From assembly GCA_036012755.1 (NCBI GenBank), contig DASCPX010000183.1, forward strand, positions 21,866 through 85,865: DNA of 64,000 bases, given 5' to 3'. This stretch comes from Myxococcota bacterium. GTDB lineage: Bacteria > Myxococcota_A > UBA796 > CAJQPC01. Both the position numbers and the translations under genes were made by a program. Shown in pieces: positions 10,869-63,912 of the stretch (positions are counted from its first letter, which is position 1; every line of letters begins with the position of its first letter). A model generated the notes under the pieces. That model was not told the DNA's origin. It ran no database searches and saw nothing but the letters and a program-made list of their open reading frames with translations.

Positions 10869-12852
10869 GTGCTCCTCCTCGTCGCTGCTGCCCTGGCTCA
10901 GGAGCCCGAGGGCCAACCCATCGACGAGGTCGTCGAGCGCACCGCCACGGCCTTCGAGGAGTCGCGGGTCCTGCGGGTCGTCCCGGCGGTGCTCGATGAG
11001 CTGCAGGTCAAGGAGCTCGTGCCCATCCTGCGCGAGGTCGAGACCAGGGACGACAAGGACGTCCGGGACTACATCCTCCTGTCCCGGCTGTACAGGCACC
11101 TCGACGAGCCAGACCAGGCCGTCAGGGCGCTGTCGGAGGGAGGCCTTGAGCCTCGAACCCGACAACGCCCAGCTCCGCATCGAGTACGCCTACGCCCTGC
11201 TGGAGAAGGGGGAGCTGGAGGAGGCCCGCGCCAGCGCGCGTGAGGGCGTGCTGCTCGACGAGTCACAGATCCGCGTCGCCACCGTCTACGCCGCCGCGCT
11301 GGGGTGGCCCTGGCCCTTTCTCGGCGCCAGCCTCGGCTCGATCTGGATCGCCGGGCTGCTGGGCTGGCGACGTCACCGGGGCGTCTCGGCCTGGATCGGC
11401 CGCACGGATGGAATCGCCGGGAGTCGGCACATCCTCCCGGCCCTGGCTCTCTGCGTCAGCGTCTCGCTCGGGCTGCAGTTCCTCTTCACCGCCCACAAGG
11501 TGGCCTTCGTGCTGCTGTCGTCCTGGGCGATCCTCAGCGCGGCATGGCTCGTCTTCGATCCCTTCCGCGAGCCGCTCGGACGCGCGGCCCGGGCCGTCGG
11601 CGGCTCTCTCTCCCGGCTCGCCACGGGGCGCCTCGGGGCTCCGCTGTCACGGCTGCCCCCCGGGACCCAGGTGCTGTTGCTCCTGGCCAGCGCCTTCTTC
11701 CTCGTGTCGGTGGCGCCCTTCATCGAAAACGCGGATCTGCGGCTCGTCGCGATCTTCCTCGGCGGGATGCTGTTCTTCTCCACCCTCGGCGGGATCATCC
11801 TGCGCCTGCTCGGACGCTCCGCCAGCCTGCGCCGTAGCCTGCGATGGCTGGCTCTCGGCGGCACGCTGCCCTTCCTGGTCTTCTTCGTCTACGCCGAGCA
11901 CGAGTCCATCCGCGTCTCCATCCAGTCAGCAGAGGCGCTCAGCAGCGCCGCGGCCGATCGCCTGGTCGGCTACCTCGTCGTCTGGGGCATCGGCGCGCTG
12001 CTCGCGCTGCTGCTCGCAGGCATCATCAGCCGCAGCATCCTCGACCCGGTGCGCAGCATCCTCAGCGCCGTCGAGGCGGTTCGGGCCGGCGACCTGGGGT
12101 CCCGCACACAGGTCGATCGTAGAGACGAGATCGGCACGCTGGCCGGTGCGGTCGACGAGATGGCGGCGGGACTGGCCGAGCGGCGCCGCATCGAGCAGAC
12201 CTTCCGCCAGTACGTCGCCGGCGCGGTCGCCGAGCGCTTGATCGCCGGGGACACCCTGGTCTCGGAGCCTCGCCGTGTGCACGCGGTCGTGCTGTTCTGC
12301 GACGTGCGTGGCTTCACGGCGCTGTCCGAGAAGCTCGAGCCCGAAGACGTCGTCCGCCTCCTCAACGGGGTCTTCGGCCGCATCGCCCCGGTGGTCCGCA
12401 CCTGGGGTGGGGTCGTCGACAAGTTCCTCGGCGACGGCATGATGGCCGTCTGGGGCGTGCCCGAGCCTCTCCGCAAGGGGGCCCACGTGGGGGTCTCGGG
12501 CGAGGAGCTCGCTTCCCGCGCGGCGCTGCAGATGGTGGCCGAGGTGGAGGCGCTCGAGGCCGAGCTCTGACAGCGGGGGCTGCCCGCGATCTCGATCGGT
12601 GTCGGCGTCAACGCCGGCGAGGTCGTCGCCGGTCCCATCGGGAGCACCGAGCGCAAGGAGTACACGGTCATCGGCGACGCGGTGAACACGGCGCAGCGGG
12701 CCGAGTCCCAGGCCCGGGGCGAGGTCGTGCTCACCGAGGCGGTCATCGAGGTGCTCGGTGACCTCGTCGAGGTCGTGCCACGCGATCCTGTGGCGCTGAA
12801 GGGGAAGTCCGAGCCCGTCCTGCTCTACACCCTCACTCGCCTCCGCAGATAG
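10869..12852 (+). pseudogene. TPR-TM-HAMP class III adenylate cyclase, disrupted
   Basis: Frameshift at a GGAG duplication (11135-11142) and an in-frame TGA at 12568-12570. The cyclase motifs GVGVNAGEV...[14 protein letters not shown]...LKGK continue to TAG 12852. Confidence 0.8.
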
Positions 12853-13273
12853 CGGTCTCGGCGTCGCACTCGAAGAGCACGCCCAGGTCGCGGCAGGGGC
12901 CCGTGCCGCTGTCGAGGCAGTCGCCGACGGCGAGCGAGGTGATCGCGTGGCCGTGCCACCAGGCGCAGCGCTCCGCCGGGTCGTAGAGGACCTGGAGCTC
13001 AAAGGTCATCTCCGGGGGCACCTCGATGCAGAACACCCCGCCGACGTTGGCGGTGGTCTCGTTCAGCAGCGTGCAGTCCGTCGGGTCCCAGGCCCGGACC
13101 GCCGCGCTGGGGGCCCCCTGGTTGTCGTAGTCGCGCGCGACTCCGCTCACGCAGGCGTCGTTGGTGCGGCTGTCCTCGTCTTCGCTGTCCTCGTCTTCGC
13201 TGTCCGAGTCGTCCGTCGGCGAGCTGTCCACCGAGTCCTTCGGAGACGTGCAGGCCAGCAGGATCAGGAGCAT
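12833..13273 (-). CDS. Small Cys-rich lipoprotein
   Basis: MLLILLA-C lipobox, acidic linker, several Cys. Confidence 0.65.
13169..13205 (-). repeat. 15-bp tandem repeat, about 2.5 copies (EDEDS)
   Basis: GCTGTCCTCGTCTTC twice plus a partial copy. Confidence 0.8.
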
Positions 13274-13280
13274 GTGGACA

Positions 13281-14504: not shown

Positions 14505-14511
14505 CGCGTCC

Positions 14512-15528: not shown

Positions 15529-15565
15529 CGAGCCGATGCTATCTCGGCTGTGGCAGCCTGGGTGC

Positions 15566-17674
15566 ATGTGGCTGCTCGTCGTCCTGTCCTGTCGCGAGAA
15601 CATCGGCATCGCCGATGTCGGCTCGGGCGAGGGAGAGCCCTGCGAGGATCACGAGACCTGCGCCAGCGGGCTGGTCTGCGCCCACGACGGAACCTGCCAG
15701 GTCGAAGACAGCCCAGGGACCTACGCCATCGGCGAGGAATGCCTCCACGCAGAGGAGTGCCAGCTGGGCCTGATCTGCGACTCCGACGGACAGTGCGCCG
15801 AGCCTGGCGCCGAGGGCACCGGACAGGCGGACGACGCCTGCGAGGACGACGGGGACTGCGCGCTGGGACTGGTCTGCTCGGACGGGCTCTGCGAGGACCT
15901 CGGCGTGCCCTACTGGGAGGGCGTCACGTGCGAGGCGGACTCGGGCGACTTCCGCATCTACACCGAGGTCCCGAGCCTGCCCGAGGAAGACACCATCGAG
16001 TTCTACCGGATGCCCTTCGCCTCCGACGCGCGTGTCGACGGAGATGGCCACCTCGAGCTCTCCGGCCACAGCTCTCCTGGAGGCGCGGTCGACTCCTGGC
16101 TCGCGGCCGCCCTGCGACCCTCCGACCTGGGACTCACGCCCACGGTGTTGTTTCGAGCCAGCGGTCGCCTGGACACGGACAGCGTGCGTGGTCTCTCCGA
16201 CGACGACACCCTGTCGATGGCCGACCTCGACCAGAGCTCAGAGGACTACGGCTTTCGAGGCAGCTTCACCTGGCGTGTGAGCCCGGGACGCGGCCGCTAC
16301 CACTGCGAGAACTGGATCGGGGTCCAGACCTTCCCGGGTGTGCCGCTGGCCGCTGACGGCAGCTACGGCGTCTGGCTCACCAGCGGGGTCCAGAGCGCCA
16401 CCGGCGAGTCGGCTTCCCGAGACGAGGATCTCGACGCGCTGCTCTCGGAGGAGACCCCCACCGACGCCCGCCTGCTCGTCGCGTGGAATGCGTGGTCCCC
16501 GCTCCGCGACTTCTTCTCTCGCAACGGGGTCGACCCCGACACGGTCGTCGGGGCGGCGGTGCTCAGCACTGGGAATCCCGCCGCTCGGGTCCGCTCCATC
16601 GAGGACCGGCTCGAGGGCGAGGCCGTCTCCTCGGACTTCCCCGAGCTGGTCGACTGCGCCTCCAGTCCTTGCGAAGGGGGCTGCGCAGACGACGTCACGG
16701 AGCTCCATGGGCAGCTCGCACTGCCGATCTTCCAGGACGAGGCCGGCGCCTGGGACTGGGACACCTTCGGAAACCCCTACCTGCGCGGCGAGGAGCTGGC
16801 CTGCGTCGCCATGACGACCCCTGGAGCTGGCGAGGACTGGCCTGTCGTCGTGGTCGTCCAGGACGAGGGCGCCGGCTTCCGGGACTGGATCGACACGGGG
16901 CTGGCCAGGGAGCTGGCGGAGGCTGGCTTCGCGGCGATCAGCGTCGAGCTGCCCCACCACGGCACCCGCGGTCGAGGGGACGGCAGCCTCTACGACCTCG
17001 AGGATCCGGAGCGTTGGCTCGGCGATCGGCTCCAGCTGGTCGCGGACCTCGTCCAGCTCTCGCGAGTCCTGGAGGGGCGCGAAGTCCACGCCGTCGGTCA
17101 TGGCGTCGGCGGTGAGATCGCGCTGGGCTGGGCATCGACCCGGCGGGACGTGTCCACGCTGGTCGTCGGCGGAGTTGGGGGCGGGCTCACGGACCGCCTG
17201 CTCGAGGTGGAGCGCGACGGGGTGCCCGTCCACTACAGGCTCCAGGTCATGCTCGCGGACTCCAAGCTCGGCAGCTACCACCCGATGCTGGCGCTGATGC
17301 AGTACGTGCAGGAGCGTGCCGATCCCCTCGTTTGGGCCGAGGACGTCTGGAAGAACCCCCCCACCGCGACCGAACCCAGCCACGTGCTCCATCTCTACGG
17401 CGCCGAGGACGAGGTGGTCGGCGCCCCGGCTCAGCAAGCCCTGCAGCGGGCCCTCGGCCTCCCCACGCTGGAGCCGGTGTTGGTGGACTTCGAGCAGTCC
17501 ACTGTTACCGGCTCCGCCTCGCGCAACCTGCTGAACGACCGCGGTGATCGCATCACCGGCGCGTCGGTGCAGCTCGACGCGGGCCACGACGCGATCTGGT
17601 CCGACGAAGGACGTGACTACGTCGTGCGCTTCCTGGCGTCCTCGCTCGAGGCGGACGAGCCGACGATCGAGTGA
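15566..17674 (+). CDS. Lipoprotein: Cys-rich repeats plus alpha/beta-hydrolase-like domain (degenerate)
   Basis: MWLLVVLS-C; three C-x5-C-x-x-GL-x-C repeats; ELPHHGTR; GHGVGG in place of GHSxG. Confidence 0.75.
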   Translation: MWLLVVLSCRENIGIADVGSGEGEPCEDHETCASGLVCAHDGTCQVEDSPGTYAIGEECLHAEECQLGLICDSDGQCAEPGAEGTGQADDACEDDGDCALGLVCSDGLCEDLGVPYWEGVTCEADSGDFRIYTEVPSLPEEDTIEFYRMPFASDARVDGDGHLELSGHSSPGGAVDSWLAAALRPSDLGLTPTVLFRASGRLDTDSVRGLSDDDTLSMADLDQSSEDYGFRGSFTWRVSPGRGRYHCENWIGVQTFPGVPLAADGSYGVWLTSGVQSATGESASRDEDLDALLSEETPTDARLLVAWNAWSPLRDFFSRNGVDPDTVVGAAVLSTGNPAARVRSIEDRLEGEAVSSDFPELVDCASSPCEGGCADDVTELHGQLALPIFQDEAGAWDWDTFGNPYLRGEELACVAMTTPGAGEDWPVVVVVQDEGAGFRDWIDTGLARELAEAGFAAISVELPHHGTRGRGDGSLYDLEDPERWLGDRLQLVADLVQLSRVLEGREVHAVGHGVGGEIALGWASTRRDVSTLVVGGVGGGLTDRLLEVERDGVPVHYRLQVMLADSKLGSYHPMLALMQYVQERADPLVWAEDVWKNPPTATEPSHVLHLYGAEDEVVGAPAQQALQRALGLPTLEPVLVDFEQSTVTGSASRNLLNDRGDRITGASVQLDAGHDAIWSDEGRDYVVRFLASSLEADEPTIE

Positions 17675-17675
17675 G

Positions 17676-17972
17676 TCACTGCCCGAGCTTGGGCGGCGGT
17701 GTCAGGCCGATGCCCCCACCCGCGCCGGGCCCGCCGAGCTGAGGGGGTCCTCCACCCAGGGTAGGCGCTCCGGTGGTCCCGCCGAGCTGTGGTGGGGTAC
17801 CCAGGGTCGGGGCTCCGGTCGAGGTCGTCGCGGGTGGGACCTCGTCGGGCACCTCGGGTGCCACCTCCGTGACCTCCTCGAGCACGATCTCCTCTTCCTC
17901 GACCGGTGGGGGCGTCGGCTCGGGTGTCGCCTCTTCGGAACAGGCGAGGATCGCAGCAAAAAGCAGGCTCAT
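17676..17972 (-). CDS. Small Pro/Gly-rich lipoprotein
   Basis: MSLLFAAILA-C, TGATG overlap with the upstream stop, P(T/Q/K)LG repeats. Confidence 0.6.
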   Translation of the reverse strand: MSLLFAAILACSEEATPEPTPPPVEEEEIVLEEVTEVAPEVPDEVPPATTSTGAPTLGTPPQLGGTTGAPTLGGGPPQLGGPGAGGGIGLTPPPKLGQ

Positions 17973-19993: not shown

Positions 19994-19998
19994 TGCGC

Positions 19999-21218: not shown

Positions 21219-21285
21219 CGATGCGGCCTAACGCTATTGCCGGAGGACGGCCTGCGGGCTATTTCGGCGGCCCCGGGAGGCACCT

Positions 21286-22866: not shown

Positions 22867-24186
22867 TCAGAGCGGGTAGTCCGTCTGGAAGACCGTGAAG
22901 CGGTAGTAGGCAGCGGGGCCGTACTCGGTCCCGTCGTCGTTGGTCACCTGGATGAAGTACTGCCCTCCGTCGAGGGGACCGATGGGGCCGACGTCGCTGA
23001 AGTCGTCGTCCGTGCCGATGTCGTCGCCCTCTCCGACGACCTCGCCGTCCTCGTCGTAGATCGTGACCTCGGCGTCGATCAGCGAGCCGAAGAGATCGGC
23101 GGTGCCGTTGAGGTAGAGGTAGTTGTCCGGGTCGACCGAGATGCTGTACCAGTCCTCGTCGTAGCCGTAGTCCATGATGCCCCAGGCCAGGGCGGTGCCC
23201 TGCTCGCCGTCGTCGTTGGTCTCCCACACGAAGTCCATGACGTTGGCTTCGCCGTCGTAGTCGTTCGGCTCGAGCTCGGCCTCGTAGTGGTAGCCACGAT
23301 CGTAGACGCGGACGTAGACGAAGCCCCAGTGGCTCTCGCCCCCATCTCCGCTGGCGTCGCTGACCGCCAAGGTGGCCTCGCCGCCGTCGACCTCGAAGTA
23401 GAAGCCCGAGCCGTTGTCGCCGCCCGGGGACTCCTTGCGCAGCAACAGGTCGCCCTCGATGTCGTAGAGCTCGTAGAGCGGCGTGGCGTCGGAGTCGACG
23501 GCGTAGGAGCTGCCGGTCAGCACGGTCGGGCACTCCTCGTAGGGCAGGGCGAGCTCGATGTAGTCGGTGTCGCCCTCCTCCTCGAGCAGCCAGCCGACGG
23601 CGTAGAAGTAGCCGGAGTCGACCTCGAGGAGCTCTCCGTTCTCGAAGCTGTCCGGGTCCTCTGTGCGGCGGCCGTACTCGGCCACCTCGAGCGTGTAGCT
23701 GAAGTCCGGGATGCCGATGTCGTTGATGTCCTCGACCATGACCGTCCAGGCGCCTTCCTCGGGCAGGTAGGCAAAGAGCACCGTGTCGTAGGTCGTCACC
23801 GGGCCGAGGGCGTGGTCGTTCTCCTGAGCGTGGAGCTTGCCGGTGGGGCTGTACAGGGAGAGGAGGGTGTCGTTGTCTTCGTCATCGGTGATCGTGTCGA
23901 TGCGGATGAACTCACCACCATCGGCGTTGAAGGTGAAGAAGTCCTGGTCGTCGTCGTCCTGCAGGACGCCTTCGACGGGAGCGTCCCAGAGGATCGACTC
24001 GGCCTCTTCCAGGGAGTTGTTCCGGTCCCCGGTGGTGCACTCCTCCTCGTCGCAGATCTGCCAGCTGCTGCAGTCGGTGTCCTCGGCGCAGGGAGTTTCG
24101 TCTGGGGGCGAGTCGTCGTTCGGCAGGTAGCCGGAGTCATCGGGGTTGCCGCGGTTGCAGCCCAGGACCAAGAGAGAGATCAGCAT
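22867..24186 (-). CDS. Acidic lipoprotein with pre-peptidase C-terminal (PPC)-like domains
   Basis: MLISLLVLG-C; DQDFF, DTDYI and DEDWY repeats; ELEPND. Confidence 0.72.
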   Translation of the reverse strand: MLISLLVLGCNRGNPDDSGYLPNDDSPPDETPCAEDTDCSSWQICDEEECTTGDRNNSLEEAESILWDAPVEGVLQDDDDQDFFTFNADGGEFIRIDTITDDEDNDTLLSLYSPTGKLHAQENDHALGPVTTYDTVLFAYLPEEGAWTVMVEDINDIGIPDFSYTLEVAEYGRRTEDPDSFENGELLEVDSGYFYAVGWLLEEEGDTDYIELALPYEECPTVLTGSSYAVDSDATPLYELYDIEGDLLLRKESPGGDNGSGFYFEVDGGEATLAVSDASGDGGESHWGFVYVRVYDRGYHYEAELEPNDYDGEANVMDFVWETNDDGEQGTALAWGIMDYGYDEDWYSISVDPDNYLYLNGTADLFGSLIDAEVTIYDEDGEVVGEGDDIGTDDDFSDVGPIGPLDGGQYFIQVTNDDGTEYGPAAYYRFTVFQTDYPL

Positions 24187-24256
24187 GAGCGAAACTTAGC
24201 TTGCCAGCCGCACCATGGCGGCTAATACGGGCGGCTGTCGCCTCTGGAGGTCCACC

Positions 24257-27228: not shown

Positions 27229-27340
27229 CGCCCCTCGGCAGAAGTCGCGATGCGCCTTCCACCGGCGCCTTCGGCGCGCGGCGCGGCGCATCGTTCACCC
27301 CGTCGCAGCCCGACTGCGTCGGAACTCGTGCCGGAGAGAA

Positions 27341-32043: not shown

Positions 32044-32079
32044 CTCGGCCCTCTAACCCCAGGCAAGATAGTGGAGCGC

Positions 32080-33501
32080 GTGCTCCTCCCCATCCTGCTG
32101 GCCTGCACAGGTGGGCCGACGCTGGTCCAGCCCGAGGGCACCATCGTGCTGGACCTCGTCAACCCGACCCCGACCGACGCGTTCAGCGGCGTCGACGAGA
32201 TCTCGATCGAGCTCCGCGTCGGCGGCGTCGTAGTGGCGTCGGAGACCTTCGGCGTCGACGAGCCGGCCGAGATTCCAGGCCTCGATGCCTTCGGCACAGG
32301 GCGCTTCCACGTCGCTGGGCTCTCCGGCGGCACCGTCATCAGCTATGGCCGCTCGCCAGAGATCCTGCTTGGACCCGACCAGGACCACAACGTCGCGATC
32401 ACCTTCCTGCCGGTCAACCAGGTCCTTTCCATCGCGGACTCGATGGCCGAGCCCCGCTCGCAGCATGGCGCCGTCCGGCTCCCCGACAACCGCATCCTGC
32501 TGCTCGGCGGGGCCAATCCGAACCGGGACGCCAGCTACGACGACGTCGAGATCTACGACCCGAGCGAGGGCATCTTCAAGCCCACCGGGACCTACCTGCC
32601 GCTGTCGCTGTACGACGTCGAGCTGTCGTTCTCGACGGACCGGACGATCTGGCTCAACGGAGGGCGGACGCTGTTGTCAGAGGGGCCGAAGGTGCAGGCC
32701 ATTTTCTTCGAGTACGACCCGGTCACCGAGCAGATAGAGATGGCCGCCGACATGAACGTGTCCCGGGCCGGTCACTGCTTCCACGAGTTCCGCGACGGCT
32801 TCGGCGCCGCCATGGGTGGGAACCGGGACACCCCCGCGATCGACTACCTGCGTCCGGACCCCGACACCGGCGAGTGGACCTGGTCAGAGGTCGTGATCAG
32901 CGGCCTGGACCAGACGGCGATGACGGGCTGCGCCGCGCTGCCCACCGGCGAGGTCTTCGTCCAGGGCCTCAGTGACGACTCCACCGGCCTCTTCGACTTC
33001 AGCGAGGACGCCGCCGCAGCCAACCCGAACATCTCTGACGCCTTCTACGCCGTCGAGAGCGGGACCTACGAGCTGCTCGACGGCGCGATGCTGATCCCCG
33101 TCTCCGATGAGCAGGTCTGGGTCGGCGGTGGGCGCACCATCGGTGGCGTGTCCGACACCACCGGGCGCATCTTCGACGTCCCGACCCGCAGCTTCGTGGG
33201 TGGGGTGGATCCCTCTCGCGAGCGGGTCGACGGCCAGTGGGACGAGTGGATCGAGGATGGCTGGTACGCCCTGGGCTGCGGCTCGCCCGACGGCGACAAC
33301 TCTCGCTCCCAGACCACGATCGAGCTCATCAACCTGCTCTCCGGCGAGCGCTACTCCTACGTCGAGGGGGACCGCAGCCGTCCAGGTTGTGAGCTGACGG
33401 TGCAAGCCGACGGCGCGATCCTCATCACCGGTGGCTTCGAGTCCGGCGGTGACGCCGAAGCGAGCGCCGCCGTGATGGTCCCCTACAACCCCCAGGAGTG
33501 A
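32080..33501 (+). CDS. Kelch-repeat lipoprotein
   Basis: MLLPILLA-C; PRSQH..RILLLGG..EIYDP repeats. Alternative GTG at 32071. Confidence 0.72.
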   Translation: MLLPILLACTGGPTLVQPEGTIVLDLVNPTPTDAFSGVDEISIELRVGGVVVASETFGVDEPAEIPGLDAFGTGRFHVAGLSGGTVISYGRSPEILLGPDQDHNVAITFLPVNQVLSIADSMAEPRSQHGAVRLPDNRILLLGGANPNRDASYDDVEIYDPSEGIFKPTGTYLPLSLYDVELSFSTDRTIWLNGGRTLLSEGPKVQAIFFEYDPVTEQIEMAADMNVSRAGHCFHEFRDGFGAAMGGNRDTPAIDYLRPDPDTGEWTWSEVVISGLDQTAMTGCAALPTGEVFVQGLSDDSTGLFDFSEDAAAANPNISDAFYAVESGTYELLDGAMLIPVSDEQVWVGGGRTIGGVSDTTGRIFDVPTRSFVGGVDPSRERVDGQWDEWIEDGWYALGCGSPDGDNSRSQTTIELINLLSGERYSYVEGDRSRPGCELTVQADGAILITGGFESGGDAEASAAVMVPYNPQE

Positions 33502-36226: not shown

Positions 36227-36667
36227 ATGCTCGCGCTTGCACTGCTGTTGTCCGTCGACGCCGCCGACAACCCCTTCCGCGTGCAGCCCCAGGGGCTCTC
36301 CGTGCCTGCTGGGTCCTCTGCCAAGGCCACCTTCGTCATCACCGTCCCCGACGGCACCTTCCTGTACCAGGACATGACGGAGGTGAAGGTGGTGGCCTCC
36401 GCGCCGCTGACCGCTGGTGCGCCCGACCTGCCTCCTGCGGTCGAGAAGGAGGACCCGGTCCTGGGCATGACGCGATCCATCTGGGATCAAGACGTCTACA
36501 TCGAGATCCCGGTCACGGCTCCGGCAGAGCTGGGCGACCACTCGCTGGTCCTCGAGGCCAGGTACCAGGGCTGCAAGGGCACGCTCTGCTACATGCCGGT
36601 GACAGAGGAGGTCACGATCCCCGTGCGCGTCCTAGCCGCCGTAGATGCCGACGCTGGAGCTCCCTGA
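36227..36667 (+). CDS. Stand-alone DsbD N-terminal-like domain protein
   Basis: Signal peptide; YQGCKGTLCYMP motif. Confidence 0.72.
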   Translation: MLALALLLSVDAADNPFRVQPQGLSVPAGSSAKATFVITVPDGTFLYQDMTEVKVVASAPLTAGAPDLPPAVEKEDPVLGMTRSIWDQDVYIEIPVTAPAELGDHSLVLEARYQGCKGTLCYMPVTEEVTIPVRVLAAVDADAGAP

Positions 36668-38308
36668 GACCACGTCACCGCGGGTCGAGCCCGTCGTCTC
36701 GAGCGACAGCGTGCCCTCGCCCAGGTACGCCCAGACCTGCCAGTTGTCCAGGTCGCCCGCGTCGTAGAGCAGGTAGGCCTGCACCCTGTTCCAGTCCACC
36801 GGCAGCGTGCCTTCCTGGGTGAGGTCGTCGGTCTCGGCCAGGGCGTAGTAGGCGATGGCGTCGCCGCCCTCGAGCCGCCCCGAGGCGAAGAGGATGGACG
36901 AGCCGGTCTCGTGCTCGCCGATGACGGCGCTCATGAACTCCACCGGCATCTCCTCCCCGTAGAGGGTCACCTCGAAGGAGCCTGAGCCGTAGGCGAAGGT
37001 GTTCTCTGTTCCGTAGCTGCCCCAGGTCGTGTCGAAGGTGACATCGAAGCGTCCCTGCTCGGCGAGGCAGATCGCCTCCCGAAGCGAGTCGTCGATGGTG
37101 GGGGGACCGCTGGCGAGCTCGTCTTCGATGTGTCCGCGCCTCGAGGTGATGAAGTCACCCATGTTCTGGATGGTCTGGCGCCGCAGGGACTTGTCCTCGT
37201 AGTCGCTCAGGTAGGGCTTGGTCAGCGCCTCCATCTCGTCGAGCCGGGTCGCCCAGTGGGACTCGTCCCAGGTCGTCTCGAGCAGGCCATCGAGGGCCTC
37301 GAAGTAGCGGTCCTGACCCTCGGCCGTGTTGTAGATCCGCCATGCCAGCATGCTCTCACCGGTCACGCTGGTCGGGCTGTAGGCGCCGAAGGGCTGCTCG
37401 CCCTCCAGGACGGCGTCGACACCCCACGGGATGAAGTGGAAGCGGTCGCCGTCGTCCGGATCCGCGTAGACGTAGAAGTTGTTGGTGTTGGCCGTGTAGC
37501 TGTCCCAGTGGCCGATGAGCACCTCTGTGGCCCATGCCCGCAGGAAGGCGTCGACGTCCACGACCTCGTCCAGCTCGGCCAGCACCTCGTCGTCATCGGC
37601 CTCGAGCGCGGCCACCACGGCGGCGAGGTCCGCTCGGTCGCTGCCACCCCACTCGTCCTCGAAGGTGTCTGTCCAGCCCTCGCGGAAGTCCGACAGGGTG
37701 CCCTCGTAGAGGTGGCCGTCGCCGTCGCCGAACTCCCGTCGAAGCAGCTGGCGCTTGACCGGCTCGATGTTGGAGTACAGCCCGAGATCCTCGCCGTTGA
37801 CGACCACGTGGGCGAAGTTGCAGCGCGACGCGGGCACCCCGGCGGCCTCGTAGATCTCGAGGGCCATGCAGGTCTTCAGCCGCGAGGGGTCCTGGCGGGT
37901 GTTGTTGAGCGTCAGGTGCTCGACCTCGTGCCAGCGCTGTCCGCTGACGATGTCGTCGAGGTCCAGCTTGATGCCCGGACGTGTCGACTCCTGGGAGCCG
38001 ATGAGCCCCTTCTTCCTGATGGCGACTGACTCCATGAGGTCGCCGTCGAGGGTCACGTCAGCCTCGAACCAGGTGTAGGGATGAGCGAAGGGCTCATCCA
38101 TGCAGTCCTCGCCGGCGAGGATGTCGAAGATGTTCCGCGCCTGGTTCCGCATCTCCTCGAAGTCCGCCTCCGACATCTCGATCTCGACCTCGATGACGTG
38201 GTCGGGGTCGTAGACGACCGCGGTCGGGTCGGTCTCCGGAGCGGCCGAGTCGTCGACGGGCAGGTTCGGGACGCTGTTCCGGGTGCAGGCCAGCAGGAGG
38301 ATGGTCAC
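36632..38308 (-). CDS. CotH kinase family lipoprotein
   Basis: MTILLLA-C; IRKKG, LTLNN, LGLYSNIE, HWDSY, NNFYVY, FIPWGVD. Confidence 0.85.
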   Translation of the reverse strand: MTILLLACTRNSVPNLPVDDSAAPETDPTAVVYDPDHVIEVEIEMSEADFEEMRNQARNIFDILAGEDCMDEPFAHPYTWFEADVTLDGDLMESVAIRKKGLIGSQESTRPGIKLDLDDIVSGQRWHEVEHLTLNNTRQDPSRLKTCMALEIYEAAGVPASRCNFAHVVVNGEDLGLYSNIEPVKRQLLRREFGDGDGHLYEGTLSDFREGWTDTFEDEWGGSDRADLAAVVAALEADDDEVLAELDEVVDVDAFLRAWATEVLIGHWDSYTANTNNFYVYADPDDGDRFHFIPWGVDAVLEGEQPFGAYSPTSVTGESMLAWRIYNTAEGQDRYFEALDGLLETTWDESHWATRLDEMEALTKPYLSDYEDKSLRRQTIQNMGDFITSRRGHIEDELASGPPTIDDSLREAICLAEQGRFDVTFDTTWGSYGTENTFAYGSGSFEVTLYGEEMPVEFMSAVIGEHETGSSILFASGRLEGGDAIAYYALAETDDLTQEGTLPVDWNRVQAYLLYDAGDLDNWQVWAYLGEGTLSLETTGSTRGDVVSGSSSVGIYGG

Positions 38309-53405: not shown

Positions 53406-53411
53406 CCGGGC

Positions 53412-55052: not shown

Positions 55053-55054
55053 GT

Positions 55055-55789: not shown

Positions 55790-55866
55790 CGGGAACCTCT
55801 AGGCGTCCTCGCCCGTCTTTCGGGCGCTCCAAACCCCTTATTGCCAGGGCTGCCCCGCGGCCACGG

Positions 55867-56577: not shown

Positions 56578-56581
56578 GGGC

Positions 56582-57088
56582 CTACTCGGTCCTGCAGGCG
56601 CTGCCGATGGACGCGACGGTGGCGTTGCCGATGCCCTTGACCCGCGTGAGGTCGCCGCAGCTGGAGTAGGAGCCGTTGGCGGTGCGGTCGTCGATGATGG
56701 CCTGCGCCTTCGCCGGGCCGATGCCATTGAGGGCCTGGAGCTCGCTCACCGAGGCTTCGTTCACGTCGATGGCGTCAGCGGCCGGCTCTGTCGCCACTGT
56801 CGCTGTCGCCTCCGCTGCCTCCGGCGCGTCAGTTGCCTCACCCGCCTCACCGAACTCGACCATCGCCGAGATGCTCTGGAGCGTGGCCGGGCCGATGCCC
56901 GGGACGCTGTCGAGCTCGTTCAGGGTCGAGAAGGGGCCGTTGGCCGTGCGGTACTCGATGATGGCGGAGGCCTTCGACGGACCGATGCCAGGGAGGGTCT
57001 CGAGCTCGGAGGACGACGCGGTGTTCACGTTGACCCCCGCGAACGCTGGACTGACGAAGAGCAACAGGCCGAGGATCCAGCTGAACAT
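56582..57088 (-). CDS. comEA: ComEA-family DNA-binding protein, two HhH domains
   Basis: VNVNTAS..LPGIGPSKA..GPF..VPGIG, repeated twice. Signal peptide. Confidence 0.88.
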   Translation of the reverse strand: MFSWILGLLLFVSPAFAGVNVNTASSSELETLPGIGPSKASAIIEYRTANGPFSTLNELDSVPGIGPATLQSISAMVEFGEAGEATDAPEAAEATATVATEPAADAIDVNEASVSELQALNGIGPAKAQAIIDDRTANGSYSSCGDLTRVKGIGNATVASIGSACRTE

Positions 57089-57090
57089 CC

Positions 57091-58107: not shown

Positions 58108-59286
58108 CTAAAGCTTGGCGAACCAGATGGTGCGGTTCGTGTAGTCGTAGCAGGCGACGTAGCGTGTCCCACCGATGGTCACGGTCTCGTTGTGGAAGCC
58201 GAGGCCCGCCTCCTGGCCACCGAGGGTGTCGAGGGTCCAGGCGCTGCCGTCGCTCGTGGCGAGGCGGACGTCGTTGTCCTCTCCGTCGAAGTAGACGATG
58301 GCGGGGAAGCTGCCGTTGTCGAAGAGCTCGCCGTCGGCGCCGGCCCACTCGCCGTCGTCGACCAGCTCGGTGGTCCAGGTGTCGCCGGAACCCCGGGCGA
58401 TGCGCAGATCCTGGTTCGTCACGTCCTGGTAGGCGATGATGATCTCTCCGCCGCTGGACAGCAGCGAGGGCCACTGGCCGACATCGGCTTCGAGCCCGTC
58501 TTCGTCGATGCTGCCTTCGTCGACCACGGTGATCTCCCAGCCGGCGCCGCTGTCGACGGCCAGCTTCAGGTCTCCGTTGGCTGCGTCGTAGTAGGCGATG
58601 TACGTACTCGAGCCATCGATGAGGAGTTCGGCGTACTTGCCGACGTCCGCGTCCTTGTCCTCGAGCCCGGAGGCGGTGTCCTCTGCGACGAAGGGCTCGC
58701 CCTCGTCCACGACCTCTGAGTCCCAGCTGTTGTCGTTCCAGTGGACGATGCGCAGCTGGCCCTTCCCGGCGTCGTAGTGGGCCACGACGGGGAGGTCGTC
58801 TCTGAGCTGGAGGCTCGAGAAGAGCCCGGCGTCGGGTGTCGGCCCGCTGCCGGTGTCGGCGAGGCCCGTCTCCCAGTCGTCCTTGCCCGAGCGGCGTGCG
58901 TAGAAGAGGTTGCCGTTGGTGCTGTCGTAGTAGGTGATCCAGGCGGTGCCGCTTCCGTCGACGGCGAGGGAGGTGTACTTGCCACGGTCACCCGGGTCGA
59001 GGCCATCGTCGCCGGCGTAGCCGTCGATGCGCTCCTCTTCCCAGGAGACGGTGCCGTCCTCGATGGTGCCGACGCTGAAGGCCAGCGCTCCCTTCGTGCG
59101 GTCGTAGTAGGAGACGACCGGGTCGCCGTCCATGACGTCCATGGAGAGGTACTGACCGATGTCGTGGGGCTCCTCGGGCTCACCGTCTATCAGGTGGACA
59201 GGGTCTTCCCGGCAGCCCGTGCAGGCCTCCAGGAGCACGCTGGTGCCGACGACCAGGACGATGGGGATGAGGCGGGAAACACGCAT
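58108..59286 (-). CDS. Repeat (beta-propeller-like) lipoprotein
   Basis: Repeats of G-x-Y-x-S-L...I-x-YYD...L. Signal with LEA-C/TG-C. Confidence 0.68.
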   Translation of the reverse strand: MRVSRLIPIVLVVGTSVLLEACTGCREDPVHLIDGEPEEPHDIGQYLSMDVMDGDPVVSYYDRTKGALAFSVGTIEDGTVSWEEERIDGYAGDDGLDPGDRGKYTSLAVDGSGTAWITYYDSTNGNLFYARRSGKDDWETGLADTGSGPTPDAGLFSSLQLRDDLPVVAHYDAGKGQLRIVHWNDNSWDSEVVDEGEPFVAEDTASGLEDKDADVGKYAELLIDGSSTYIAYYDAANGDLKLAVDSGAGWEITVVDEGSIDEDGLEADVGQWPSLLSSGGEIIIAYQDVTNQDLRIARGSGDTWTTELVDDGEWAGADGELFDNGSFPAIVYFDGEDNDVRLATSDGSAWTLDTLGGQEAGLGFHNETVTIGGTRYVACYDYTNRTIWFAKL

Positions 59287-59330
59287 GGGGACGCTCACTT
59301 CGGTGCCAGGAGCCGGGGGGGAACGTAGCA

Positions 59331-60620
59331 CTAACGGACCGTGATCGCACCGGAATGAATCCACGGGTGCGAGCGCTCCGCGAGCGCCTCCGCGTCGGTC
59401 AGGAAGTCGGTCAGGTGGAGGGGCACGATGGACCAGCTGACGCGGTAGACGCCCGGGGTCGTGGCCTCGTGTTCGCCGCAGCCCTCGGCCACTACGGCGC
59501 CGTCCCGGCGAATCGCGACGGTGATCTCGGGGTCCTCGACGCCGCGCGGCGAGGTAGAGGCGAGGCCCGTACAGGAGACGTGCAGAGTGCCGGGATCGGC
59601 GATGCCGCCGAGCTCGGTGATGTCGCCGCCGCTGTCGATGTGGACGTCGAGCGCGTCCGGGACACCCAGGAGCTCGAAGACCACGGCGTTTCGACCGGCG
59701 GAGAGCGCCTCGTCGAAGTCCTCACCCTCGGTCAGGGCCCAGTTGCTGAACCAGGAGACCATGCGCCGGTAGCTGTCGACGCGCTCGCCGTCGTCCAGCT
59801 CCAGGTTCAGCACGTTCTGGTGTGCGTCGGTGCCGGCTATGCCGACGGTGGGTCGGAGCTGGGACAGGGCGTCCCAGTGCTCCAAGGAGGGTGTCTGGTC
59901 CTGGTGGACGGCGAGGTAGAGCAGGTCCGGCTCGGCGTCACCGTCGACGAAGGGCCCGATGTCCTCGACCCAGGAGAAGGGCTCCAGGCCCAGGTCCTCC
60001 TCCCGCTTGTCCGGAGCGAACATGGCGTGGAGGTTGAAGATCTCGAGCCCGACCAGTCCCCACTCGGAGCGCTCGACCAACTCGTCGAGGTCGCGGCCCT
60101 CTGAGTGGGCCTGGAAGACGAGCGCCCCGGCCTCGGCGAAGGCGGCGTAGGACTCGGCGTCGCTGCGGTTGTAGAGGGCGTACCGCTCCTCTGCGGTCCC
60201 GGGGACGGGCTCCTCCAGCCCGATGGGCATGCTGTCGTCCTCGATGCCCGGGTAGAGCAGGGTCCCGCACTCCATGCGGCTGCCGTGCCCGAGGTCTTCG
60301 TCGCCCTCCCTGAGCAGCTTCGTGTCCTCGTAGTCCTGGTAGGCGGCGTGGGAGGGGTGGTCGGTGACGTAGGCGAAGTCCATGCCGGTCCGGCAGAGCC
60401 CGTCGCGGAAGTCCTGGAGGCACTCCTCTGAGAAGACACCGTCCTCGTCGATCCGACCGTCGCAGGCGTCGTGGGACCAGGGGGAGTGCAGGTGGACGAT
60501 GCCGCGACGCCAGCGTCGGTCGCGCAGTTCGAGAACGAGCCGCGGGCGGTCCGGCGACCAGGGCACAGTCACAGGTCCGCTGTCGCCGGGCGCTCCGGTA
60601 CAGGCCAGCAGGAGGAACAT
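59331..60620 (-). CDS. PHP-like metallohydrolase lipoprotein
   Basis: MFLLLA-C; HLHSPWSHD, TDH, QAH, EIFN, GTDAH. Confidence 0.75.
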   Translation of the reverse strand: MFLLLACTGAPGDSGPVTVPWSPDRPRLVLELRDRRWRRGIVHLHSPWSHDACDGRIDEDGVFSEECLQDFRDGLCRTGMDFAYVTDHPSHAAYQDYEDTKLLREGDEDLGHGSRMECGTLLYPGIEDDSMPIGLEEPVPGTAEERYALYNRSDAESYAAFAEAGALVFQAHSEGRDLDELVERSEWGLVGLEIFNLHAMFAPDKREEDLGLEPFSWVEDIGPFVDGDAEPDLLYLAVHQDQTPSLEHWDALSQLRPTVGIAGTDAHQNVLNLELDDGERVDSYRRMVSWFSNWALTEGEDFDEALSAGRNAVVFELLGVPDALDVHIDSGGDITELGGIADPGTLHVSCTGLASTSPRGVEDPEITVAIRRDGAVVAEGCGEHEATTPGVYRVSWSIVPLHLTDFLTDAEALAERSHPWIHSGAITVR

Positions 60621-60648
60621 CTTCTCCGACTATTGGGTCCGGGCCCTC

Positions 60649-61404
60649 TCAGCGAGCGTTGAGCGCCTCTACCACCGCCAGGGCGTCCCCGACGCTGTAG
60701 TAGTCGACGGACAGCAGGTTGACGAAGCCGACCGCCTCCAGGCAGGCGCCGACGTGGTCACCGATTACCGGCTGGTGGTTGATGGCCTCTGCGTTTTCCG
60801 GACTGGCGATGGGGTTCGTCAGCACGTGGGTGACCTCGTAGAGGCCCCCGTCGATCTCCTCTCCCTGGACGGTGCAGTCGAGCTCCTCGGGCGTGTCGTA
60901 GTCCCAGGCAGTGCCGTAGACGAGCCGCTCGTCGAGCAGGACGAGCTCGCCACGCAGGGCCCGCATCGTCTGCCAGGGCTCGCCATGCGGTTGCAGGTGG
61001 ACGCGCTCGTAGACCGCGTGGGCCTCTACTGCGTCGATCATGTCTCCCTCGGGGGCCTCGTCCTGGAAGTCGATCAGCACGGTCTCGTCTGGGTTCTCGC
61101 CGAGGAAGTCCTCGATCTCGTCCAGGATCTCCTCCAACGGCTGGGTGCCGAGCTCGCAGAAGCCGTGGCAGGCGGCTAGCTCTCCTTCCCACTCGTAGAC
61201 GTCGACGTTGAGGCTCCTGACGCCGTCCTCGAGCTGGGTGGGGATCGCGAAGGTGTGGTTCCTGGCGGTCAGGTGGTAGCCGCGCTCTTCGCTGGCGTGG
61301 GAGTTGTGGCTCCGCAAGAAGGCGACCTCGTCCAAGGGCAGGTCACAGAGCTCCACGGCGCCGTTGCAGCGCAGGGGCTCCGTACAGGCGATCAACCACA
61401 GCAC
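60649..61404 (-). CDS. PI-PLC-like phosphodiesterase lipoprotein
   Basis: MLWLIA-C; CNG..LC, SHNSH, QLEDGVR, CHG, FL..NP.E, VDYY. Confidence 0.78.
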   Translation of the reverse strand: MLWLIACTEPLRCNGAVELCDLPLDEVAFLRSHNSHASEERGYHLTARNHTFAIPTQLEDGVRSLNVDVYEWEGELAACHGFCELGTQPLEEILDEIEDFLGENPDETVLIDFQDEAPEGDMIDAVEAHAVYERVHLQPHGEPWQTMRALRGELVLLDERLVYGTAWDYDTPEELDCTVQGEEIDGGLYEVTHVLTNPIASPENAEAINHQPVIGDHVGACLEAVGFVNLLSVDYYSVGDALAVVEALNAR

Positions 61405-61436
61405 CCTCGCAGGCTAACCTCGGGCCAGGCGGGCCC

Positions 61437-62528
61437 ATGCACATCAGTGGCAGCTTCGACTCCGGCAACATCGAGCTCCGCGACGGCGAGCTCCACATCC
61501 GCCACGACGTCGGCGGCGAGCACATGCAGTGGTTCCACTTCCGGGTCACCGGTGCCCGTGGAGAGGCCTGCACCCTGAGGCTCGTCAACGCCAAGGCTGC
61601 CAGCTACCCAGAGGCCTGGGAGGGCTACCGCGCCTGCGTCTCGAGCGACCGAAAGGCCTGGCGGCGAGTGGACACCCGGTACATCGGCGGGGCCCTCGAG
61701 ATCGCCTTTTCGCTGGAGTCCGAGGTGGTCTGGGTGGCCTACTTCACGCCCTACTCCCTCGAGCGGCACATGGAGCTGTTGGGGTGGTGCCAGGGCAGGG
61801 CGCGTCTCGACCGCCTGGGCACCACCCTGGATGGACGCGACCTCGACAGGGTCATCGCCGGCACGGGCGACAAGGTCGTCTGGATCATCGCTCGCCAGCA
61901 CCCCGGGGAGAGCATGGCCCAGTGGTGGGTAGAGGGCCTCCTCCGCCGGCTCCTGGATTCCTCGGACGCCCTCGGGCGGCGCCTCCTGGACAGCGCCACC
62001 TTCCACATCGTGCCCAACATGAACCCCGACGGCAGCGTCCGCGGCCACCTCCGCTGCAACGCCTCCGGGGCGAACCTCAACCGCGAGTGGCACGAACCCT
62101 CCGCCGAGCGCTCGCCAGAGGTGCTCCATGCGCTGGCCGCCATGGATGTCTCCGGTGTCGACTTCTTCATGGACGTCCACGGCGACGAGGAGCTGCCCTA
62201 TGTCTTCATCTCCGGCTGCGAGGGCGTCCCCGGCTGGGACGAGCAGCGGGGCAGGGACGACCGGCTCTTTCGTGACGACTACGAGCGGGCCTGTCCCGAC
62301 TTCCAGCAGGTCATCGGCTACGGCGTGGACAAGCCCGGCGAGGCGAACATGAGCATGGCCGGCAACGCCGTCGCCGAGCGCTTCAGCTGCATCGGGCTCA
62401 CCCTCGAGATGCCCTTCAAGGACAACGCCAACGCCCCGGACAGCGACCACGGCTGGTGTGCGCGGCGCTCCATGCGTCTCGGCGCCGCGGTGCTCCAGCC
62501 GCTCTCGGCGCTCCTGGACCGCCTTTGA
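61437..62528 (+). CDS. M14 cytosolic carboxypeptidase
   Basis: FDSGNI, ARQHPGE, PNMNPDG, NLNREW, DVHGDE, TLEMPFKD. Confidence 0.92.
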   Translation: MHISGSFDSGNIELRDGELHIRHDVGGEHMQWFHFRVTGARGEACTLRLVNAKAASYPEAWEGYRACVSSDRKAWRRVDTRYIGGALEIAFSLESEVVWVAYFTPYSLERHMELLGWCQGRARLDRLGTTLDGRDLDRVIAGTGDKVVWIIARQHPGESMAQWWVEGLLRRLLDSSDALGRRLLDSATFHIVPNMNPDGSVRGHLRCNASGANLNREWHEPSAERSPEVLHALAAMDVSGVDFFMDVHGDEELPYVFISGCEGVPGWDEQRGRDDRLFRDDYERACPDFQQVIGYGVDKPGEANMSMAGNAVAERFSCIGLTLEMPFKDNANAPDSDHGWCARRSMRLGAAVLQPLSALLDRL

Positions 62529-63703
62529 TCGCGCTTCTGGGCTGTCTCTCTTCGCCGGCGCCGCCGGCGGGGCCGGATCTGACCCTCGTCAGCGTCGAGA
62601 CCCTCCGCGCTGATCACCTGCCCGCCTGGGGCTATGAGCGGGAGACGATGCCGTTTCTCTCCTCCGTGGAGGGACGCCGCTTCCACCATGCGCGCTCCAC
62701 CGCTCCGTGGACGCTGCCCTCGATGGCCTCGATGCTGACCGGCCTGCAGGCCACCGAGCACGGCGTCGTGACCCACGACAGCGTGCTGCCCGAGGATGTC
62801 CGGACCCTCGCAGAGGACCTCTCCGCCGCCGGCTACGAGACGGCGTTCTTCGGCGTGAACGAGCTCTTCGTCGACCCTCGAGGCCTCGACCAGGGCTTCT
62901 CGACCTTCATGGGCGTGAACGGATGGTCCGCGGACAAGCTCCGGCGCGAGGTGGAGGCGTTCCTTGAAAACCGGAACGATAATAGACCGTTGTTCCTTGT
63001 GGTCCACTTCTTCGAGCCTCACTGTCCATACCACGCCCCTCGAGACCTGCGCGGCACCTTCGTCTCGGACCCGGGCGAGCGGGTATCAGAGGAACAATGG
63101 TCAACGATGTCAGACTGTTATAAGGAGGACCCTGACATCTCGAAGACCATCGACGCCTATGACGAGGAGCTCGTGGCTGTCGACCGTGTGATCGGGCAGC
63201 TGCAGCTCCCGGGGATCGTCGCCTACGTCGGGGATCACGGCGAGTCCTTCTGGGAGCACGGTGACTACGGCCATGGCCGTCAGGTCTACGATGAGGCAGT
63301 CCATGTGCCGCTTATCGTTCATGGAACCGGCTTCGAAGGTGTGGAGGAGCGACCGGTCTCGACCGCATGGATCGCCAACACCTTCAGGGCTCGGGCGGGG
63401 CTCTCCAGCGAGCGCCCGAGCCTGGAGTCTCCGTTGGCCCAGGTCGTCTCCCAGACCGCCAACGAGGGGCTGGATCGGAGCGTCGTCGCCGAGGGCAGCC
63501 TGCGGCTCTTCCTCGACGAGGAGGGGGCCAGGCTGACCGATCTCGCCAGTGATCCGGTCGAGACCGGTCGCATCGAGGACGAGGCCGCTGTCACGCGGCT
63601 GACGGCGGCGCTTCCCCAGCCGCTCTTCGACGCCGAGCGGCGCCCGCTGGAGGCCGCCTCGGTAGAGCGCTTGCGGGCGCTGGGCTACCTCGAGCGAGAA
63701 TAG
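62525..63703 (+). CDS. Sulfatase-family lipoprotein
   Basis: MIALLG-C; ETLRADH, WTLPSMASMLTG, EPHCPY, GDHGE, LRALGY. TTGA overlap. Confidence 0.87.
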   Translation: MIALLGCLSSPAPPAGPDLTLVSVETLRADHLPAWGYERETMPFLSSVEGRRFHHARSTAPWTLPSMASMLTGLQATEHGVVTHDSVLPEDVRTLAEDLSAAGYETAFFGVNELFVDPRGLDQGFSTFMGVNGWSADKLRREVEAFLENRNDNRPLFLVVHFFEPHCPYHAPRDLRGTFVSDPGERVSEEQWSTMSDCYKEDPDISKTIDAYDEELVAVDRVIGQLQLPGIVAYVGDHGESFWEHGDYGHGRQVYDEAVHVPLIVHGTGFEGVEERPVSTAWIANTFRARAGLSSERPSLESPLAQVVSQTANEGLDRSVVAEGSLRLFLDEEGARLTDLASDPVETGRIEDEAAVTRLTAALPQPLFDAERRPLEAASVERLRALGYLERE

Positions 63704-63712
63704 GATTCGCTC

Positions 63713-63912
63713 GTGTTCGTCGCTTTGTTCGCCTGCACCGGGCGATCCCGACGCCGAGGAGGGTTGGTTCGAGACCGGCCAGCCCGCCGACGCCGTGCTC
63801 GGTGCCGGAGCGCCTGGCCTTCGACGGCCGCTCCCTGTGGGTGGCCGAGTACAAGTTCTCCGGTCGAGTCCTTGGCTACCAGCGCGTTGACGCCCGCACC
63901 CTCGGCGAGTAG
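63713..63912 (+). pseudogene. Remnant of an NHL-repeat-like lipoprotein gene
   Basis: Three frames: MFVALFAC / WFETGQPADAVLG / PERLAFDGRSLWVAEYKFSGRVLGY..TAG. Confidence 0.5.

Follow-up and report, generated by a model that had tools for sequence, protein, structure and literature searches.

Predicted lipoproteins of an uncultured Myxococcota bacterium begin with ultrashort, uncharged, signal-like sequences

Introduction

Signal sequences of the Sec and lipoprotein (Lsp) pathways are usually about 15-30 amino acids (aa) long. According to a review (PMC9360617), the canonical lipoprotein signal opens with a positively charged n-region, which is followed by a hydrophobic h-region and the lipobox Leu-Ala/Ser-Gly/Ala-Cys; Lgt modifies the protein and signal peptidase II (SPase II) then cuts it. 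Here we analysed a 64,000-nucleotide stretch of DNA from an uncultured Myxococcota bacterium (G000:C183:21866-85865, hereafter the window), in which open reading frames (ORFs) begin with a start codon, a few uncharged hydrophobic residues, and a lipobox-like cysteine. The assembly comprises 6.73 Mb in 250 contigs with a GC content of 68%, and the sequencing runs containing DNA of the organism are marine metagenomes. A preliminary description of the window had listed ten such ORFs. Short uncharged starts of this kind are real and occur throughout the genome and the order to which it belongs. Most of the proteins that look lipid-anchored and exported are predicted to start with Met, 4-8 hydrophobic residues, and Cys, forming a signal that is uncharged and about half the textbook length.

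The putative signals resemble canonical Sec/SPase II signals in their N-terminal position, hydrophobic core, Ala, Gly, or Ser at position -1, and an invariant Cys at +1. Leucine occupies position -3 in 62% of them, a polar acidic linker follows the Cys, and Lgt, LspA, and Lnt are encoded in the genome. However, the positively charged n-region is missing (Lys or Arg in 7/492), the modal length is 7 residues, with 3-9 residues between Met and Cys compared to 13 between the last charge and the Cys in the genome's own canonical signals, and position -2 is mostly Leu, Phe, or Ile rather than Ala or Ser. Hikita and Mizushima (1992, J Biol Chem 267:12375) reportedly found that engineered E. coli signals without an N-terminal positive charge are exported and need a longer hydrophobic stretch. 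The signals described here are similar in that a positive charge would not be an absolute requirement and hydrophobicity would compensate for its loss; their core is richer in leucine. For Deinococcus deserti and Mycobacterium tuberculosis, PMC4007540 describes leaderless mRNAs in which a -10 motif, TAnnnT, immediately precedes the start codon. We found no published description of genome-wide ultrashort bacterial Sec or lipoprotein signals in the literature covered, which did not extend to subscription journals.

Results

Short uncharged starts across the genome

Genes were called with a crude caller based on GC content at third codon positions (GC3), which yielded 4093 stop-to-stop ORFs with closed 5' ends. 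The pattern sought in the first 200 codons consisted of a start codon, 4-11 residues that are uncharged and mostly hydrophobic, and then [GAS]C. It was present in 550/4093 ORFs, compared to 19/2413 for an internal control window of 200 codons. Starts were also predicted by a procedure blind to the signal, which used codon log-odds, start-codon type, and a bonus for a Shine-Dalgarno (SD) or -10 motif only, and placed the start at the short position in 433/550 cases. Chance origin of the pattern is excluded by its rarity in the control and by its coincidence with the independently predicted starts.

The signal-blind procedure identified 684 predicted lipoproteins among 4064 proteins. Their modal signal has 7 residues, and the lengths are distributed as follows: up to 8 residues in 405, 9-12 in 162, 13-16 in 55, 17-25 in 46, and more than 25 in 16. 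Lysine or arginine precedes the Cys in 102/684, and about 80% of the roughly 684 proteins have the short form. We refer to the frequency of short starts in a genome as the trait. In 400 kb of the low-trait genome G067 the identical pipeline found mostly signals of the MR type, with a median length of 14, Lys or Arg in 20/33, and 8 or fewer residues in 5/33, therefore the pipeline does not manufacture short signals. In 200 kb of the high-trait genome G005, 25/30 signals have at most 12 residues. A 200-kb sample of G087 was excluded from the comparison because the GC3-based caller provided only 48 genes. Lipoprotein-like sequences make up ~17% of the predicted proteins of G000 (684/4064), which would be a very high share for a bacterium.

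When the ORFs are aligned on their short starts, a GC3 of 0.86-0.90 sets in at the start codon, and the upstream GC content is flat at 0.5-0.7. The codon log-odds per codon amount to -0.35 for the ten codons preceding the start (n=373), +0.19 past the Cys, and +0.31 in gene interiors. The DNA upstream of the short starts is non-coding in aggregate. An in-frame stop is located within 5 codons upstream of the short start in 122/550 ORFs and within 10 codons in 185/550, including 77 in which it lies at exactly 3 codons.

The absence of charged residues does not follow from the search pattern, because positions 2 to k-4, when left free (Cys index 6-9), contain Lys or Arg in 7/492 and Asp or Glu in 0/492 sequences. 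The commonest number of residues between Met and Cys is 6, and in the canonical class of the same genome the last charge and the Cys are separated by a median of 13 residues. At lipobox position -1, where the choice was imposed by the search rule, there are 380 Ala, 82 Gly, and 69 Ser among 531 signals. Position -3 is Leu in 329/531, and position -2 is Leu in 332, Phe in 46, and Ile in 44, which is atypical. Leucine forms 55% of the core in the short class and 40% in the long class, and the mean Kyte-Doolittle hydropathy is 2.98 versus 2.59. The net charge of the first 15 residues of the mature region is about -2.2 in both classes (-2.24 and -2.20), so that early mature-region charge was rejected as a compensation specific to the short class. 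The cargo in a random sample of 19 short-class proteins includes a GH5 cellulase, a 5'-nucleotidase, a sulfatase, and CotH, and 9/19 have no Pfam family. No division into housekeeping and accessory functions between the long and short classes is evident in the 20 and 19 proteins sampled, respectively.

Short starts in the window and in orthologues

The ORFs with short starts in the window and the promoter-like elements next to them are as follows, with V(M) and L(M) indicating GTG and TTG start codons:

12833..13273, minus strand: 146-aa protein without Pfam family, MLLILLAC; the ATG is 7 nt past the stop of the upstream gene
15566..17674, plus strand: 702-aa alpha/beta-hydrolase-like protein, MWLLVVLSC; only weak hydrolase Pfam matches
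17676..17972, minus strand: 98-aa small lipoprotein rich in Pro, Gly, and Glu, MSLLFAAILAC; SD AAGGAG; start overlaps the stop of a molybdopterin oxidoreductase gene (TGATG)
22867..24186, minus strand: 439-aa conserved lipoprotein without Pfam family, MLISLLVLGC; conserved lipobox Cys
24193..24198, minus strand: TAAGTT, -10 promoter hexamer occupying -12..-7 relative to the start at 24186; the TAA in it was listed as an in-frame stop in the preliminary description
32080..33501, plus strand: 473-aa kelch-repeat protein, V(M)LLPILLAC; GTG start, GGAG at -9..-6, Pfam kelch
36632..38308, minus strand: 558-aa CotH-family protein, V(M)TILLLAC; GTG start, TACCCT at -13..-8 (38316-38321), Pfam CotH
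59331..60620, minus strand: 429-aa protein without Pfam family, MFLLLAC; SD GGAG, TAG 3 codons upstream (60630-60632)
60649..61404, minus strand: 251-aa PI-PLC-X-domain protein, V(M)LWLIAC; GTG start, Pfam PI-PLC-X
61411..61416, minus strand: TAGCCT, -10 promoter hexamer occupying -12..-7 relative to the start at 61404
62525..63703, plus strand: 392-aa sulfatase, L(M)IALLGC; overlap (TTGA) of the TTG start with the stop of an M14 carboxypeptidase gene, sulfatase domain from residue 19
63701..63909, plus strand: TAGGAT -10-like hexamer (63701-63706), GTG at 63713, VFVALFAC, frame broken twice; before tRNA-Arg (63924-63999)

All ten short N-termini listed in the preliminary description are present in the sequence, and nine of the ten ORFs begin as it stated; the frame starting at 63713 breaks after 8 codons. 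Five of the ten starts that had been written as Met are not ATG, namely GTG at 32080, 38308, 61404, and 63713, and TTG at 62525. The stop/start overlaps reported at 17972 and 62525 are correct. The types of exported cargo named there were recovered by Pfam for CotH, sulfatase, PI-PLC-X, and kelch; a PPC domain was not detected at E<=0.01 in the nine proteins scanned.

The exact short form is present in public gene calls for 8/9 window proteins, among them the 392-aa sulfatase and the 146-aa protein, for which there is also a 158-aa alternative; the exact 98-aa form starting at 17972 was not found in the public collections. The kelch protein is represented by a 476-aa form on 7 contigs and the 473-aa form on 1. 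The longer form begins at a GTG located 3 codons upstream (window 32071-32082), which is used by some public gene calls and gives an N-terminus starting with MERV (MERVLLPILLAC). The open frame upstream of 32080 is the antisense of an aminotransferase gene at 30802-32043 on the minus strand, which leaves a spacer of 36 nt. Longer starts are possible in G000 itself for the ORFs at 13273, 15566, 38308, and 62525. The ATG at 15536 would yield MLSRLWQPGC-MWLLVVLSC. The ORF at 13273 has GC contents of 0.65, 0.50, and 0.95 at codon positions 1, 2, and 3.

Orthologues from the same genus leave no starts but short ones for six of the window proteins, which supports the claim of the preliminary description that the short starts are the true ones. 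The 15566 orthologue of G002 has MWWLFWIGC as the only start, with a stop 14 codons upstream, and that of G001 starts with MLALLLIGC, with a stop 2-3 codons upstream. For 38308, the G001 orthologue has MMTSLLLLAC with a stop 6 codons upstream, and MPAFALSLLFSLAC is the only start in G002 after a stop 14 codons upstream. The 62525 orthologue of G002, V-ILLGLAC, has no other start within 43 codons, and group g4 contributes MIQLLLLLAC and MTWLLLLAC. In G001, the 13273 orthologue starts with V-LLILLAC behind the SD GAGGAGG and has no other start within 29 codons. The syntenic G002 orthologue of 17972 (55% identity) starts with MLLMLALAC. The orthologues of 60620 are MLLLTLAC in G002, with a TAG 3 codons upstream and AGGAGG, MLLIALAC in G001, with TAGCCT at -12, and V-VLFFVAC in G007.

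Relatives of the 439-aa protein were identified in 26/31 genomes, including G000; one search of genome contigs returned no relative, and the relatives came from the search of the 31 genomes. The lipobox Cys is kept in all 12 loci read, that is in G000 and 11 relatives, confirming the expected conservation. Within the genus, the protein starts with MLLLLLAC behind TAGATT at the same offset as in G000 (G002) and with V-TPILFALAC behind an SD. Short forms occur in genera g1 and g7 (MFLWILAC in g7), and forms with Lys or Arg in the sister genera g3 (MNKHLLSV...GGC), g5 (MRASIALLSLFFVGC), g2 (MTPRPRPLSPW...GAC), and g8.

The sulfatase match in G007:C130 (L062) reads PLILALAC and has no ATG, GTG, or TTG nearby; it may be initiated at CTG or ATC. 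At the end of contig G005:C138 (L082), an adaptor-like sequence, presumably from the Nextera transposase adaptor, runs in frame into the beginning of the 60620 orthologue, which is probably adaptor contamination of that assembly. A contig from run X7, a hydrothermal vent metagenome, has C>A at 61389 (depth 2, one contig), which changes lipobox position -1 of the PI-PLC protein from Ala to Ser.

In-frame stops and putative leaderless mRNAs

Among the 550 short starts, the first base of the motif TANNNT falls on -12 in 72 cases and on -13 in 30, with counts of 0-11 for other offsets. When all 29,603 candidate starts are considered, it peaks at -12 (324) and -13 (149) over a background of roughly 20-80. 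Guanine is present at -14, a position not imposed by the search, in 62% compared to about 34% in the background, and there is no -35 signal. In the window, the hexamers at -12 are TAAGTT, TAGCCT, and TAGGAT, and the TACCCT of the CotH gene sits one base further out. From its sequence and position, GnTAnnnT is the extended -10 box of putative leaderless mRNAs, with transcription predicted to start on the first base of the start codon. The recurrent in-frame stop 3 codons upstream is present because the -10 consensus opens with TAG or TAA. The preliminary description had placed such stops four codons upstream of 24186, 60620, 61404, and 63713; the stops are real and are situated 3 codons ahead of the start codon (nt -12..-10). 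The TAG upstream of 60620 is followed by the GGAG SD. A longer N-terminus would be impossible for leaderless genes, because transcription and translation start at the same base. Read-through of the stop at the -4 codon of 24186 was rejected, since the stop belongs to a -10 motif that recurs in the genome and the DNA preceding the starts has no coding character in aggregate.

The leaderless context is found in 116/533 short-signal lipoproteins (about a fifth) and in 440/4064 of all genes, and is therefore twice as common in the former. An SD is present in another 235/533 short-signal lipoproteins. As in D. deserti and M. tuberculosis, TAnnnT is located 6-7 nt before ATG or GTG, with G at -14 and no -35 signal, in ~11% of genes. 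In contrast to those species, the motif is doubled among short-signal lipoproteins and is read as an in-frame stop. In genomes with a high GC content, TAG or TAA three codons before a start can be the -10 box of a leaderless mRNA and hence mark the true start. The 440/4064 predicted genes with GnTAnnnT 6-7 nt before the start include those of cytoplasmic proteins, which suggests widespread leaderless transcription in G000.

Candidate shortened signals of the SPase I type

Ten matches to the Plug domain of TonB-dependent receptors were found in G000; nine ORFs were read, and the N-terminus was assessed in eight of them. In four it is a short leader of 10-11 residues that bears no charge, such as MLWLSMTLALA|QEPP and V-IQLLVALALA|QEPP, two are canonical, and two are of other kinds. 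A search with our own pattern identified 247/3380 non-lipoprotein predictions with an uncharged leader of 9-17 residues and an AxA-like predicted cleavage site, 210 of which have 9-12 residues. The BamD protein of G000 starts with MFALLLTLSLPAVAA. Since leaders of the signal peptidase I (SPase I) type appear to be shortened too, in TonB receptors, the 247 candidates, and BamD, the change is predicted to lie at the level of Sec signals in general. The BamD homologues of the order (L116-L145) have SPase-I-type leaders and no lipobox Cys.

Distribution across the order and phylum

A codon-agnostic scan for RTG, five NTN codons, GCN, and TGY, for which the reversed-pattern control gave 0-2 matches per genome, was applied to 121 genomes of the order and 201 genomes sampled from the phylum. 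In the order, there are 57-79 matches per genome in group g1, 50-106 in g4, 115-119 in g58, 58-73 in g30, and 16-47 in g15. The low-trait groups are g3 with 2-7 matches, g5 with 1-2, and family f2 with 1-5. Outside the order there are 0-5 matches per genome, and the trait is confined to one order among the 201 phylum genomes searched. In a tree based on the single gene for SecY, g1 and g4 are sisters, low-trait g3 belongs to the same clade, and the mid-to-high-trait family f7 is sister to low-trait f2. The trait is quantitative and graded across genera, and it appears to have risen or fallen several times, because the SecY tree mixes groups with high and low counts.

Export and lipidation machinery

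G000 encodes five Lgt, two LspA in tandem, one each of Lnt, SecA, and Ffh, three SPase I, and SecY. The lspA-lspA-lgt-lgt cluster is located at G000:C59:100000-102591 (L069 1444-4146), and the three other Lgt paralogues are on C203, C40, and C127. Both LspA copies align to the solved LspA structure 6ryo and keep the catalytic Asp motifs GNxxDR and FNxAD. These motifs and an insertion of ~10 residues relative to the solved LspA are the same in high- and low-trait genomes, order-wide. Nearly all of the 121 order genomes have 2-6 copies of Lgt, regardless of the trait, and two LspA copies are also present in the zero-trait genomes G022 and G026.

None of the columns in the SecY alignment distinguishes the 10 high-trait genomes from the 16 low-trait ones. 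Position 187 (5abb_A numbering) is Ala or Ser in all 28 order sequences (L088-L115), with Ala in G000 and Ile in E. coli. We take position 187 to be the pore-ring Ile of E. coli, and G000 presumably keeps five of the six pore-ring residues. Residue 192 is Thr in most of the 28 sequences (Ser, Ala, or Val in three) and Phe in E. coli. As correlates of the trait we considered the copy numbers of Lgt and LspA, the motifs of LspA, and the pore-ring, plug, and all other columns of SecY, none of which tracks it.

Discussion

We consider it probable that the short starts work as minimal signals of the Sec/SPase II and SPase I types, which employ ordinary machinery and evolved on the substrate side. 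The lineage appears, on the strength of the motifs and their conservation, to use minimal uncharged signals, as the preliminary description proposed; that the in-frame stops are -10 boxes of putative leaderless mRNAs, that SPase-I-type signals appear to be shortened too, and that canonical signals persist, for example in Pal, are additions to it. The lipoprotein form would consist of the initiator Met, 4-8 Leu-rich uncharged residues, and L-(L/F/I)-(A/G/S)-Cys, and the secreted SPase I form of Met, about six hydrophobic residues, and an AxA-like site, 9-12 residues in total. The n-region would have shrunk to the N-terminal Met alone, and the Leu-rich core, together with an early mature region that is acidic (a net charge of -2.2 within 15 residues), would provide hydrophobicity and orientation. 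Lacking any charge, a peptide this short may be drawn into the membrane, and the ordinary pathway would export the protein, with Lgt diacylglycerylating the Cys and LspA performing the cut. The canonical signals of the order are already minimal, with MR and about 12 residues, and the short form could have originated from them by the loss of the single Arg or Lys and upstream codons.

Several points weigh against this explanation. We infer export, lipidation, and cleavage only from cargo families and motif conservation, and among the listed sequencing runs that contain window positions 54000-63900 there is no RNA run. The hydrophobic run of the short class is about half as long as that of the long class, and in contrast to the signals of Hikita and Mizushima, the stretch is shorter, about half of the 13 residues in the genome's own canonical signals, natural, and present in hundreds of proteins. 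One or two of the 19 randomly sampled proteins look cytoplasmic, namely RpiB with MGAIMGC and a PPDK_N-domain protein. The caller depends on GC3 thresholds, failed to call several genes of the window, and placed the start of the kelch gene wrongly, the start model left out non-canonical start codons, and the related genomes are non-independent samples. Pal has a canonical MR..., MIR..., or MSR... signal in all six high-trait genomes of g1 and g4 that were read (MRITTLLFLTLTMAATC in G000). Because Pal retains a canonical signal, short signals may be less efficient or serve another fate. The essential outer-membrane lipoproteins were considered as proof of function and fail as such, since BamD lacks a lipobox and Pal is canonical. 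The Pal proteins of g1 and g4 (L146-L175) have Thr at lipobox position -1 (…AATC, …GATC).

It is possible, although we hold it doubtful, that hundreds of proteins in several genera are exported, and those with a lipobox lipidated, through 6-10-residue charge-free signals, that the trait evolved repeatedly, and that the efficiency comes from an adaptation that we did not find. Candidates for such an adaptation would be SecA, Ffh, or YidC, the thickness of the membrane, or retention of the N-terminal formyl group on leaderless products.

It is unlikely that the short signals work only by means of changed targeting or processing machinery (SecA, the signal recognition particle (SRP), SecY, Lgt, or LspA) or an extra factor. 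The confinement to one order, with 0-5 matches outside compared to 50-119 in high-trait genera, points to such a change, as do the five Lgt and two tandem LspA genes with their cluster, the Ala or Ser at what we take to be a pore-ring position of SecY, and the higher counts of those genera of family f1 that have two similar LspA copies. However, all these features recur in genomes of the order that have low or zero trait counts (Lgt 2-6 copies, two LspA in G022 and G026, SecY Ala/Ser in 28/28), and the LspA motifs and insertion are order-wide. The altered recognition by SecA/SRP, Lgt, or LspA that the preliminary description proposed is not supported by what was tested, because the compared features occur regardless of the trait; SecA, Ffh, Lnt, and YidC were left out of the comparison across genomes. 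Furthermore, low-trait G067 has ultrashort signals too, with 5/33 of up to 8 residues, for which reason tolerance of ultrashort signals seems to be order-wide, with the difference being one of frequency.

We regard it as improbable that the short N-termini are real and many of them are not cleaved Sec/SPase II signals, being instead uncleaved anchors, weak signals, substrates of YidC-type insertion, or signals for inner-membrane retention. The canonical Pal of high-trait genomes, the lack of a Pfam family in 9/19 sampled proteins, and a hydrophobic stretch shorter than any known to function are consistent with this explanation. Nevertheless, the Cys with Ala, Gly, or Ser at -1 is conserved across orthologues, the strain variant at 61389 keeps to the lipobox rule, and the polar acidic linker past the Cys has the same charge as in the long class. 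Additionally, TonB receptors and BamD, which must cross the inner membrane, have short or uncharged SPase-I-type leaders. That the true starts lie upstream, perhaps at non-canonical codons, and encode ordinary signal peptides is very improbable and largely refuted: 365/550 ORFs lack an in-frame stop within 10 upstream codons, four of the ten ORFs named in the preliminary description have candidate upstream starts, and about 70/373 upstream windows of 10 codons have positive coding log-odds, but codon periodicity is absent upstream in aggregate, stops occur within 5 codons in more than a fifth of cases, -10 boxes and SD motifs are placed for the short start, orthologues are forced short, a divergent gene fills the DNA upstream of 32080, and a low-trait genome in the identical pipeline yields canonical signals.

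If the minimal signals function as it seems, neither a basic n-region nor a hydrophobic core whose length suffices to engage the translocon is an obligatory minimum for Sec and lipoprotein signals in nature, and the n-region and about half of the textbook h-region would be dispensable in vivo. Most envelope proteins of the lineage would escape rule-based and trained predictors alike, amounting to ~17% of ORFs as lipoproteins and roughly 250 proteins of the secreted type. The lineage may also offer a natural experiment, in which the signal of one protein is canonical in a genus and has only 7 residues in the next, making the minimal needs of SecYEG, Lgt, and LspA directly testable.

Other features of the window

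In the ORF at 63713, GC3 is 0.88 in the 8 signal codons and 0.65 in the remaining 69. A coding-like GC3 of 0.87 shifts to a second frame at 63738-63806 and then to a third frame at 63820-63909. The contigs of runs X2, X5, and X6 have no indel in this region and contain the same broken frame, and position 63760 is T, not A, in the contigs of all four runs compared. The ORF is probably a frameshifted or decayed small lipoprotein gene, or else a chance ORF.

Window positions 27300-31500 have the highest GC content of the window (0.718), and the GC3-based caller called no gene there despite long ORFs. The class-III-aminotransferase-like gene at 30802-32043 on the minus strand is among the ORFs that the caller missed. 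The last 139 nt of contig C183 (window 63862-64000), which include the tRNA-Arg gene, are 100% identical to the reverse-complemented end of C246 (G000:C246:70034-70172), and the two contigs probably join at this overlap because of the identity of their ends.

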